A stretch of 4,715 nt of DNA from a virus (lineage: Duplodnaviria > Heunggongvirae > Uroviricota > Caudoviricetes): positions 1-4,715 of IMG/VR virus record IMGVR_UViG_2671180427_000006. The stretch is one strand, 5' to 3'. This document shows, piece by piece, positions 2,477 to 4,680 of this stretch (positions are counted from its first letter, which is position 1; the number at the start of each line of letters is the position of its first letter). The notes under the pieces are model-generated. The model saw only the letters and a list, made by a program, of their open reading frames with translations, did no database searches and had not been told where the DNA came from. A program made the translations under genes and the position numbers.

Positions 2477-3010
2477 ATGAACACCAAAATCAAATACGGC
2501 CTGTCGGCTGCCGTTCTGGCGCTGATTGCCGCTGGTGCGCCTGCGCCTGACATTCTCGACCAGTTTCTGGATGAAAAGGAAGGTAACCACACCACGGCAT
2601 ACCGTGATGGCGCGGGTATCTGGACCATCTGCCGCGGTGCCATCCTGGTGGATGGCAAACCTGTCGTTCCTGGCATGAAGTTGTCGAAGGAAAAATGCGA
2701 CCGGGTTAACGCCATTGAGCGTGATAAGGCGCTGGCATGGGTGGAGAAAAACATCAGAGTGCCATTGAGTGAACCCCAGAAAGCGGGGATCGCGTCATTC
2801 TGTCCGTACAACATTGGCCCCGGTAAGTGTTTTCCGTCGACGTTTTATAAACGAATTAATGCAGGTGATCGCAGGGGAGCGTGTGAGGCGATTCGCTGGT
2901 GGATTAAGGACGGTGGCAGGGACTGCCGTATTCGCTCAAATAACTGTTACGGTCAGGTATCCCGTCGTGACCAGGAGAGCGCGCTGGCGTGCTGGGGAAT
3001 CGACAGATAA
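2477..3010 (+). CDS. R: SAR endolysin (T4-lysozyme-like muramidase with N-terminal signal-anchor-release domain), 177 aa
   Basis: Weakly hydrophobic Ala/Gly-rich N-terminal TMD (LSAAVLALIAAGAPAP) followed by catalytic E35-x8-D44-x5-T50 (EGNHTTAYRDGAGIWT), as in phage 21 R21. Pairs functionally with the pinholin upstream. Confidence 0.92.
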   Translation: MNTKIKYGLSAAVLALIAAGAPAPDILDQFLDEKEGNHTTAYRDGAGIWTICRGAILVDGKPVVPGMKLSKEKCDRVNAIERDKALAWVEKNIRVPLSEPQKAGIASFCPYNIGPGKCFPSTFYKRINAGDRRGACEAIRWWIKDGGRDCRIRSNNCYGQVSRRDQESALACWGIDR

Positions 3011-3101
3011 GCAGAATATTTTGCTAATAAATGACGTTGGCCAAGGCGGATGGATAACACGAAATCCTGCGAACTGGCAAAATGTAAGTGAATAAAAGTA
3101 A

Positions 3102-3140
3102 AAACCCCGTTTGTTGGCAGCAAGCGGGGTTTTGTTTTTA
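3102..3140 (+). terminator. Strong Rho-independent terminator (bidirectional in appearance) about 90 bp after the endolysin
   Basis: Stem AAACCCCGTTTG (3102-3113) / CAAGCGGGGTTT (3121-3132), 12 bp with one G-U, 7-nt loop TTGGCAG, then TTTTGTTTTT. An A-rich tract upstream (AATAAAAGTAAAA) gives a T-tract on the opposite strand. Confidence 0.75.
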
Positions 3141-3204
3141 TGGCAGTAAGCTATGGGAGGCTGCCTTGATTGATTTTAGCAAACTGATTAGGGAGTTGCG
3201 ACTC

Positions 3205-3300
3205 ATGATTAGTCAATTACCAAACTGGAAATTTTTGCTGGTCTGGAGCATCCCTTTTTTATGGGTAGTATCCCAGTTAATTGTGGCAATTAAGGGGTAG
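3205..3300 (+). CDS. Hypothetical small hydrophobic peptide, 31 aa (MISQLPNWKFLLVWSIPFLWVVSQLIVAIKG)
   Basis: ATG 3205 preceded by SD GGGAG (3191-3195) with 9-nt spacing; one predicted TMD; stop TAG 3298-3300 sits 2 nt before the next ORF's ATG. Too short for the supplied ORF track. Confidence 0.4.
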   Translation: MISQLPNWKFLLVWSIPFLWVVSQLIVAIKG

Positions 3301-3302
3301 CT

Positions 3303-3434
3303 ATGTCAGACAAACTCATAACGCCGGCAAAGGTCCTGTGTGTGATTGTCGGTATTTCATTTTCACTAATGCTGGTTGCTCTTTTTCTGTCCTTCGCCTG
3401 GGTGATGTTGTCTTCGTCGGGGCTGCTGGGGTGA
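3303..3434 (+). CDS. Hypothetical small membrane peptide, 43 aa (MSDKLITPAKVLCVIVGISFSLMLVALFLSFAWVMLSSSGLLG)
   Basis: ATG 3303 with SD AAGGGG (3293-3298); polar N-terminus then a ~26-residue hydrophobic segment (single TMD); stop TGA 3432-3434 overlaps the GTG of the next ORF (GTGA). Confidence 0.45.
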   Translation: MSDKLITPAKVLCVIVGISFSLMLVALFLSFAWVMLSSSGLLG

Positions 3435-3553
3435 CAGTGACTGATGACATCAGCAGAGCGCTGGCTTTTGCTATTAAGTGGGTGGCTGTTGGTATTGCTG
3501 TGTCTCCGATGCTGTATGGGCTGGCAAAACTGGTCATTGCGCTGAAATCGTGA
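3431..3553 (+). CDS. Hypothetical small hydrophobic peptide, ~40 aa from GTG 3431 (start uncertain; ...TDDISRALAFAIKWVAVGIAVSPMLYGLAKLVIALKS)
   Basis: Open frame ending TGA 3551-3553; candidate GTG starts at 3431 or 3437; shares the motif RA(L/M)AFAI(K/R)xVA with the next peptide. The longer TTG-3281 version in the ORF track overlaps the previous ORF and lacks an SD. Confidence 0.35.
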   Translation: MTVTDDISRALAFAIKWVAVGIAVSPMLYGLAKLVIALKS

Positions 3554-3564
3554 ACTTTAAAAAG

Positions 3565-3651
3565 ATGAGTGCTGAACTTATTCGGGCAATGGCATTTGCC
3601 ATTCGTATTGTGGCCATTGCTGTTCTGGTCTGGGCAATCCGTTGGTGGTGA
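3565..3651 (+). CDS. Hypothetical small hydrophobic peptide, 28 aa ([28 protein letters not shown]), paralogous to the preceding peptide
   Basis: ATG 3565, 11 nt after the previous stop; stop TGA 3649-3651 is 1 nt before the Rz ATG; single hydrophobic helix with a Trp-rich C-terminus; no strong SD. Confidence 0.35.
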
Positions 3652-3652
3652 T

Positions 3653-4147
3653 ATGAACCGTGTTCTGTGTGTGGTGATTATTGTCCTGCTGGTAGCCTGT
3701 GGTGTGCTTAGTCTGGGGCTGAATCATTACCGCGATAACGCCATCACCTACAAAGCGCAGCGCGATAAAAAAGTCAGTGAGCTGAAACTGGCGAATGCCA
3801 CTATTACTGACATGCAGCAGCGCCAGCGAGATGTCGCTGCGCTTGATGCCAGATACACGAAGGAATTAGCCGATGCGAGAGCTGAAAATGAAACTCTGCG
3901 CGCTGATGTTGCCGCTGGTCGTAAGCGCCTGCGGGTCAACGCCACCTGCCCCGGTACCGTGCGTGAAGCCACCGGCACCTCCAGCGTGGATAATGCAACC
4001 GGCCCCCGACTGGCAGACACCGCTGAACGGGATTATTTCATCCTCAGAGAACGGTTGATGACAATGCAGAAGCAGCTGGAAGGGGCGCAGGAATATATCC
4101 GCACTCAGTGCACTAAGCTGGCTTTTTATTATCCGGAGGATACATGA
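3653..4147 (+). CDS. Rz: Rz i-spanin (inner-membrane spanin subunit), 164 aa
   Basis: [40 protein letters not shown]..., an N-terminal TMD plus coiled-coil periplasmic domain, closely matching lambda Rz as recalled ([41 protein letters not shown]). ATG 3653 chosen over the upstream GTG 3569 of the ORF track. Confidence 0.92.
3873..4058 (+). CDS. Rz1: Rz1 o-spanin (outer-membrane lipoprotein spanin subunit), 61 aa, embedded in the +1 frame of Rz
   Basis: [61 protein letters not shown]: signal peptide with lipobox (VSAC), Pro-rich mature part, strong similarity to lambda Rz1 as recalled. SD AAGGA (3859-3863) 9 nt before ATG 3873. Confidence 0.88.
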
Positions 4148-4368
4148 AGAAATTACGGGTAACCGTAGAACCTTTTCAGGGAACAATTCCGTTCCGTATT
4201 TTGCAGCGTGGTCGTGTTCTTGTTGAAGGTTCGTTCAGTGGTAAATGTACGCAATTACACTCCCGGACCTTTCAGGTGAATGCCACGAATGAAGAGCTAA
4301 CCGTGGAGTGTACGATGAATGCCGCTAAATGCCGCATGGTATCCGCTGCATTACAGCCAGTGTGTTGA
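4144..4368 (+). CDS. Hypothetical protein, 74 aa, basic N-terminus, four Cys, no TMD; start overlaps Rz stop (ATGA)
   Basis: ATG 4144 overlaps the Rz TGA (4145-4147) and is preceded by SD GGAGGA (4135-4140). [74 protein letters not shown]. No family recognised by me. Confidence 0.45.
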
Positions 4369-4571
4369 GCGACCTTATTATCCATGCGCGGTATTGTCGC
4401 CGTATTCCTGCATTAACAGAGACCGCAGCCCGACAGGGAGACTCCTCTGCGCGAGTGTGCGGGGATAATCAAAAACGATACACACCGGGGTTTACCGCGT
4501 TAACGGAGCGCGGCGTTGTCCCCTCATAGTCGCCTGTCCGGTGCGATGGTGGAAGAAACCGGACTACATTG

Positions 4572-4594
4572 AAAATGATAACCATTATCATTTT
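4572..4594. repeat. Perfect 10-bp inverted repeat AAAATGATAA-CCA-TTATCATTTT resembling a Fur box, immediately upstream of cosQ/cosN
   Basis: Arms 4572-4581 and 4585-4594 are exact reverse complements. The core AATGATAACCATTATC matches the Fur consensus GATAATGATAATCATTATC at 15 of 16 overlapping positions. No properly spaced -10 element is evident. Confidence 0.5.
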
Positions 4595-4595
4595 T

Positions 4596-4680
4596 GCGGG
4601 TCCTTTCCGGCGATCCGGGCCGTTACGGGGCGGCGACCTCGCGGTTTTTCACTATTTATGAAAATTTTTCAGGGAAAATC
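4596..4680. other. cos: cos region of a lambda-type phage (cosQ-proximal flank, cosN, beginning of cosB)
   Basis: GCGGGTCCTTTCCGGCGATCCGGGCCGTTACG | GGGCGGCGACCT | CGCGGTTTTTCACTATTTATGAAAATTTTT closely matches the lambda right end, cohesive end and first bases of the left end (recalled lambda: ACGGGTCCTTTCCGGTGATCCGACAGGTTACG / GGGCGGCGACCT / CGCGGGTTTTCGCTATTTATGAAAATTTTCC). Confidence 0.85.
4628..4639. other. cosN: cosN 12-nt cohesive-end sequence (terminase nicking site; virion genome left end would begin here)
   Basis: Exact match to the phage lambda 12-nt 5' cohesive end GGGCGGCGACCT, preceded by GTTACG as at the lambda right end. Confidence 0.85.

Follow-up and report, generated by a model that had tools for sequence, protein, structure and literature searches.

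A PHROG 2571 cargo gene between Rz and cos in the late region of a lambdoid Escherichia coli prophage

Two positions in the late operon of lambdoid phages are recognised cargo slots, one past the spanin genes and the other between the Q antiterminator gene and the holin gene. In phage lambda, the interval between Rz and cos contains bor, a gene with its own promoter that is expressed in the lysogen. In the usage attributed to Juhala and Hendrix, an extra gene unit of a lambdoid phage is said to be a moron. Small phage proteins of another kind are Acb2 and Tad1, sponges that act against CBASS and Thoeris. Here, we describe a small gene that occupies the Rz-to-cos slot and compare it with these systems. 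It had been picked out by an earlier reading of the DNA that used the letters alone (the sequence-only reading). That reading gave the lambda interval as bor plus about 2.4 kb, which is too long: with the end of Rz at 46427 and that of the lambda genome at 48502, about 2.1 kb remain, bor included.

The stretch of DNA analysed (the window, 4,715 nt) represents the late region of a lambdoid prophage of E. coli. Its features, with the evidence for those nearest the gene of interest, are as follows.

64-1692: SASA-family sialate esterase
1843-2058: P21-type holin
2063-2413: DUF1327 protein
2477-3010: phage lysozyme
3653-4147, plus strand: Rz i-spanin, 164 aa (Pfam Phage_lysis, 4.4e-51)
3873-4058, plus strand: Rz1 o-spanin lipoprotein, in the +1 frame inside Rz (Pfam Rz1, 1.7e-21)
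4135-4140, plus strand: Shine-Dalgarno GGAGGA (sequence; junction survey of 93 loci)
4144-4368, plus strand: 74-aa gene, member of PHROG 2571, product predicted to be a small all-beta sandwich and cytoplasmic (ORF list, PHROG match, homologues, dN/dS, AlphaFold)
4369-4564: non-coding tail 3' of the ORF (blastn end-points of close relatives)
4575-4639: lambda-type cos region (blastn against lambda; sequence)

Between the endolysin gene and Rz (3303-3651) there are also three tiny hydrophobic ORFs of 43, 38, and about 24-27 aa. The second and third share matches to PHROGs 1115, 3246, and 4493 and look like tandem paralogues. A strong terminator-like hairpin, with 15 pairs followed by a T run, is located at 3101-3133, about 90 nt past the endolysin stop. 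This hairpin lies within the late operon, where it overlaps a 70-codon ORF (3088-3300), and Q-modified polymerase presumably reads through it.

The ORF at 4144-4368 is, as first proposed, a same-strand gene in the slot occupied in lambda by bor. The 12-nt cohesive end, GGGCGGCGACCT, which is of the lambda type, is found at 4628-4639, 480 nt past the Rz stop (in agreement with the earlier estimate of about 480 bp) and 259 nt past the stop of the ORF. Upstream of it, positions 4575-4617 are 88% identical to lambda 48451-48492 (blastn); we take this segment to be, probably, cosQ. The absence of bor is also borne out: a tblastn search of the window with lambda Bor returned nothing (E > 1), and the minus strand between Rz and cos offers only ORFs of 33-40 codons.

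In close relatives, the 196-nt tail that follows the ORF (4369-4564) travels with it. Similarity ends at 4563/4564 in 69 loci (blastn), just short of about 4575, where the lambda-like cos segment starts. The tail shows no unusual folding (z-scores of -0.25 and -0.18), and a search of the whole window against Rfam found no RNA family. An overlapping ORF in the +2 frame (4329-4529) was considered and rejected as a gene, given that its length ranges from 46 to 91 codons among close relatives. In the nearest relatives, E. coli H3 and Combat2C1 (99% identical), about 760 extra bases are present between the ORF tail and cos. This segment, which falls at about 4564-4575 of the window when compared with 3970-5078 of locus L003, encodes a 46-aa ORF and, on the minus strand, a YlcI/YnfO (DUF3950) protein. 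It is missing from both the window and STEC17-183.

The junction between Rz and the ORF can be read directly. The start codon (ATG, 4144-4146) overlaps the Rz stop (TGA, 4145-4147) in the sequence ATGA, and GGAGGA sits 3 nt ahead of the ATG, a rather short spacing; both elements had been recognised from the letters. We surveyed this junction in 93 loci of close relatives, in which the spacer with its Shine-Dalgarno is kept as GGAG[G/A]A. The overlap itself occurs in only about half of them and is thus not a family trait. In about one third, Rz ends (..RTQCIK*) at a TAG located 23 nt upstream and is followed by the same spacer and Shine-Dalgarno, and in a few the gap between Rz and the ORF is 27, 85, 251, or about 440 nt. 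The window has CTG where relatives carry the TAG, and 11 more codons are read. Consequently, its Rz has 164 aa as compared with 153 aa in lambda, with an 11-residue C-terminal extension after the conserved C-terminal cysteine (window 4115-4147). The ATGA overlap of the window is thus explained by loss of the usual Rz stop (TAG to CTG), which extended Rz into the next start codon. The translational coupling to Rz that had been emphasised is, judging from the sequence of the junction, real in the window, but as a design feature it does not hold, being a by-product of stop-codon loss.

The 74-aa ORF is a real gene that evolves fast under purifying selection. The sequence-only reading had proposed two checks on the gene, an intact frame in close relatives and a coding-type pattern of substitution, and the gene stands on both. 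The frame is intact in all 101 loci surveyed by tblastn, with lengths of 71-88 aa. Across allele pairs with 61-97% protein identity, dN/dS in frame is 0.27-0.51 in nine of ten cases, significantly below 1 (Fisher p < 0.05), and most pairs have values of about 1-2 in the two shifted frames. Only the window allele paired with that of E. coli O55:H7 CB9615 (locus L090, 4001-4225) departs from this; these alleles differ by 18 non-synonymous and 4 synonymous changes, which are distributed along the protein. Diversification (dN/dS above 1) in this pair is a hint only, given the few sites and a Fisher p of 0.6. The endolysin of the same phages has a dN/dS of 0.03-0.10. Omega of the 74-aa gene is below 1, yet 4-10 times that of the endolysin; the gene is therefore constrained but evolves faster at the protein level. 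A common allele in complete E. coli genomes carries an in-frame 9-nt deletion; this form (for example L001, 1668-1883), found in many E. coli genomes, encodes 71 aa and is without the residues SAA near the C-terminus.

It is unlikely in the extreme, in our view, that the ORF is no functional gene and that its frame has been kept by hitch-hiking or by some other role of the DNA near cos. The ORF is short, has no known function, and includes the one close allele pair with 18 non-synonymous against 4 synonymous changes, all of which would fit such an account. Against it, purifying selection is confined to the annotated frame, the in-frame deletion allele is maintained, relatives only 25-45% identical share both the length and the predicted fold, and in other phages the gene lies away from cos.

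The protein had been described as an orphan that matches nothing, and this description fails. It matches PHROG 2571, a family catalogued as of unknown function, over residues 1-73 (E 2.7e-28), and each of ten distant members examined hits this PHROG as well (E 1e-10 to 1e-20). At least 1000 contigs encode the identical protein, which is UniRef A0A0F4HGS4 (“uncharacterized protein”). Among complete E. coli genomes, 23% carry the gene (1,244 of 5,426), with up to six copies each, and there the NCBI pipeline always labels it “hypothetical protein.” The Rz region has matches in 421 phage records, and the ORF is encoded in 26 of these, mostly Stx1, Stx2a, and Stx2c converting phages together with H-19B; lambda does not have it. 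The gene was therefore already catalogued, and the sequence-only reading correctly called a real gene without making a new discovery.

A profile search of 1.8 billion representative proteins placed the wider family in 47 representative clusters. Named relatives come from Escherichia, Salmonella, Citrobacter, Yokenella, Leclercia, Yersinia, and Xenorhabdus, and those from the last six genera are 25-45% identical (word-indexed profile search). Positions conserved across the wider family are M1, K2, V6, F17, Q21, G33-K34, Y43, and V45. The protein and profile searches that had been suggested thus led to a PHROG, with no match to the 74-aa protein in Pfam (E up to 1) or NCBIfam. PADLOC returned no match (E up to 0.1) for this protein, for mEp237 gp60, or for two PHROG 4280 proteins (see below). 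A one-genome-per-species scan found no relatives, and the distant member P0069 had no match in phages (tblastn). Profile matches to multi-repeat proteins (cystatin repeats and a DUF5122 propeller) were set aside as spurious. No relevant paper on the gene or its function was found in the literature by genomic context, PHROG identifier, or accession.

The product has 74 residues, a mass of 8 kDa, and a pI of 9.5. Its N-terminus is polar rather than hydrophobic, and the first 25 residues include six K/R and a single D/E. The 19-residue Kyte-Doolittle mean peaks at only 0.76, and the hydropathy scan accordingly revealed no membrane segment, signal peptide, or lipobox. The earlier description of a soluble-looking protein with a basic N-terminus and four cysteines agrees with these properties. 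The emphasis on the cysteines (residues 35, 56, 63, and 74) as a defining trait does not, as none of the four is conserved in the alignment of the wider family. Cys63 and Cys74 co-occur in the alignment; a cysteine pair was considered, but two linked C-terminal alleles explain this equally well. Indeed, the C-terminal 18 residues exist in alternative forms among relatives.

Structure prediction, another of the suggested checks, gave a confident all-beta model. AlphaFold2, run with a 21-sequence alignment, predicts six beta strands and a short helix (mean pLDDT 89.5, pTM 0.75). A sequence profile search of the PDB for a relative of solved structure yielded noise only (best E 0.039). Foldseek searches of the PDB and BFVD found nothing below E 0.065, and all structural scores fall in the non-specific range. 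Homology to a beta sandwich of lambda gpJ was rejected, as hhalign against lambda J gives a probability of 0.3%.

Calling the gene a candidate moron turns out to be fair. It is inserted between genes that are adjacent in most relatives: 26 of the 421 records have it, lambda does not, and it is found with two packaging modules. Its base composition is unlike that of its neighbours, with G+C of 47.3% and GC3 of 44.6% as compared with 54.3% and 57.3% for Rz and 55.2% and 61.0% for R; the lower G+C relative to Rz is as expected of imported cargo. A classical moron with a promoter and a terminator to itself is not supported. A simple consensus scan, a crude method that a weak or non-sigma-70 promoter within Rz could escape, found no sigma-70-like promoter upstream of 4144-4368 and no intrinsic terminator downstream.

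We then examined where members of the family are encoded. In E. coli and Salmonella, close members always lie after Rz, and are followed either by lambda-type Nu1/A/W/portal genes or by DUF3950, HNH, and Terminase_2 genes (HK97 type). In mEp237, Yokenella, Citrobacter koseri, and gut metagenomes, distant members come after the spanin gene of lysis cassettes that are unrelated, and further ones lie between the Q antiterminator and holin genes in Salmonella and Xenorhabdus. In Yersinia enterocolitica (loci L094 and L095, 4001-4216), the member is encoded in an early region, outside the late operon. Genes for a Ser/Thr protein kinase, ParDE, and an ERF recombinase are found beside it in this block. 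Thus, the gene is adjacent to lysis genes, on either side, in most loci and remote from them in Yersinia, and most phages with the same Rz do not have it.

Most distant members of PHROG 2571 have a recurrent neighbour. In 15 loci, and in either slot, a conserved gene of PHROG 4280 (about 69 aa, also catalogued as of unknown function) lies 3' of the PHROG 2571 member, usually at a distance of about 40-80 nt. Examples, by locus, are as follows.

L085, 4265-4471: PHROG 4280 gene
L093, 4306-4527: PHROG 4280 gene
L102, 4306-4515: PHROG 4280 gene
L103, 4327-4536: PHROG 4280 gene
L100, 4319-4534: PHROG 4280 gene
L106, 1736-1951: PHROG 4280 gene

The PHROG 4280 gene is truncated in one E. coli lineage (L087-L089), and tblastn found no remnant of it in the window. 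The two genes could together make up a mobile cassette, not recognised before, in temperate phages of enterobacteria. Such a cassette would hop between both late cargo slots and have a new function in counter-defence or competition between phages. The E. coli/Stx lineage would then retain the beta-sandwich half, which would have become self-sufficient. We regard this proposal as doubtful, and also as the single lead worth pursuing. The Xenorhabdus budapestensis prophage (L106), which carries a PHROG 2571 member, has another gene starting at the last base of Rz (3699-3941). This gene encodes a protein with the Acb2/Tad1 hairpin domain (Pfam, 44.5 bits against a cut-off of 27), which owes its Pfam name to Acb2 and Tad1.

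The gene of the window belongs to PHROG 2571 and is mobile cargo: the ORF occurs with both lambda-type Nu1/A and HNH/Terminase_2 packaging modules and beside unrelated lysis cassettes. That it is a real cargo gene of this family is very probable. Our best explanation overall, which we offer tentatively, is that of a non-essential late-operon cargo gene that encodes a small binding protein, possibly a conflict factor. As neither a promoter-like nor a terminator-like site was found on its flanks, we infer that it is expressed as part of the late transcript. The gene would be made only in lytic growth, from the Q-antiterminated transcript, with translation starting at its own Shine-Dalgarno and aided here by the stop-start overlap with the extended Rz. 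The product, a predicted 8-kDa cytoplasmic all-beta sandwich with no catalytic signature, would most likely act by binding another macromolecule. A part for such a small binding protein in phage-host or phage-phage conflict is conceivable, and we suggest it with some hesitation. A conflict factor of this kind, serving counter-defence or host take-over, might be moved between phages as a small cassette, which in the E. coli lineage would have lost its usual PHROG 4280 partner. Fast evolution, mobility between slots, the structure of the cassette, and the Acb2/Tad1 gene after Rz in Xenorhabdus all point in this direction. The last of these is a positional analogy, which implies neither homology nor function. 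On the other hand, many counter-defence genes are expressed early, not late, which counts against this reading.

The sequence-only reading had also suggested a lysis accessory protein. If the product tuned the holin, endolysin, or spanin, this would explain why its gene abuts the lysis cassette and overlaps Rz. The ORF is found directly 3' of the spanin gene beside at least four types of lysis cassette, elsewhere it is commonly placed upstream of the holin gene, within about 0.5-2.3 kb of it, and about half of the close relatives share the ATGA overlap. However, the overlap results from stop-codon loss and is not conserved, lambda and about 94% of the phage records with this Rz lack the gene, and distant members lie upstream of the holin or, as in Yersinia, in an early region far from the lysis genes. 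The protein has no segment that would target it to the envelope (hydropathy maximum of 0.76). Lacking a signal peptide, lipobox, or membrane segment, it could not gain access to the periplasmic domains of Rz and Rz1. A pinholin/SAR-endolysin cassette (a P21-type holin is encoded here) makes no large holes through which a cytoplasmic protein could pass, which also argues against a role in lysis. Because the periplasmic parts of the spanin are out of reach for a cytoplasmic protein and most phages with the same Rz do without the gene, we rate a lysis role as unlikely. A location in the late operon is also what would be expected of a virion-associated accessory, a small beta-sandwich module that would either be injected or serve to decorate the particle. 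Some remote similarities fit this idea: in a 225-aa relative (P0065), the domain is preceded by a region that weakly matches Phage_Tail_Tip, and two distant members have weak Pfam matches to FNIII-A_GpJ (E 0.03-0.15). The P0065 fusion is a single cluster, though, and could be an artefact of gene calling, the profile-profile comparison with lambda J is negative (the 0.3% given above), and structural scores are non-specific throughout. Moreover, the gene accompanies two unrelated head/packaging modules and is unlinked to tail genes. A virion role is thus improbable.

Another possibility is a lysogenic-conversion moron similar to bor, which the prophage would express and from which the host would gain serum resistance, virulence, or superinfection exclusion. 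The slot is the same as that of bor, G+C is below that of the neighbouring genes, and the gene is common in STEC and Stx phages. Its strand is nevertheless that of the late genes, the consensus scan found neither a promoter-like site upstream nor a terminator downstream of it, and its product, having no export signal, cannot be a surface factor. The product also shows no similarity to Bor (tblastn, E > 1) and has no PADLOC match. We consider this account very unlikely, and return to the cargo gene with a possible role in conflict as the preferred reading. The gene is among the commonest unexplained genes of E. coli prophages, including Stx phages, and has neither a Pfam family nor a solved structure. 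Its role, once known, would supply a missing piece in the picture of the late operon of lambdoid phages. Should it prove to be a counter-defence or competition factor, it would provide that field with a new family of small proteins.

Small beta sandwiches of the jelly-roll or carbohydrate-binding-module (CBM) type, namely those of CBM35/36, the PA-IIL lectin, the gpJ domain, and XepA, share 5-16% identity with the 74-aa protein (Foldseek E of 0.065 or higher), and typical CBMs are about twice its size. Lambda bor resembles the gene in its genomic slot, its standing as non-essential cargo, and its atypical base composition. In contrast, bor is on the opposite strand and Bor starts with a lipoprotein-type signal, and the two proteins are dissimilar in sequence. 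The likeness to Acb2/Tad1 (PF24729) is one of position and size only, these being small soluble phage proteins with one representative in the post-Rz slot; the 74-aa protein has no PF24729 match (Pfam, E up to 1) and is predicted to be all-beta. Within PHROG 2571, the subfamily of the window differs from the rest in having cysteines that the others lack and in being without the PHROG 4280 partner. Its counterpart in position among PHROG 2571 members is mEp237 gp60 (YP_007111433), which is likewise encoded just past an Rz-like spanin.
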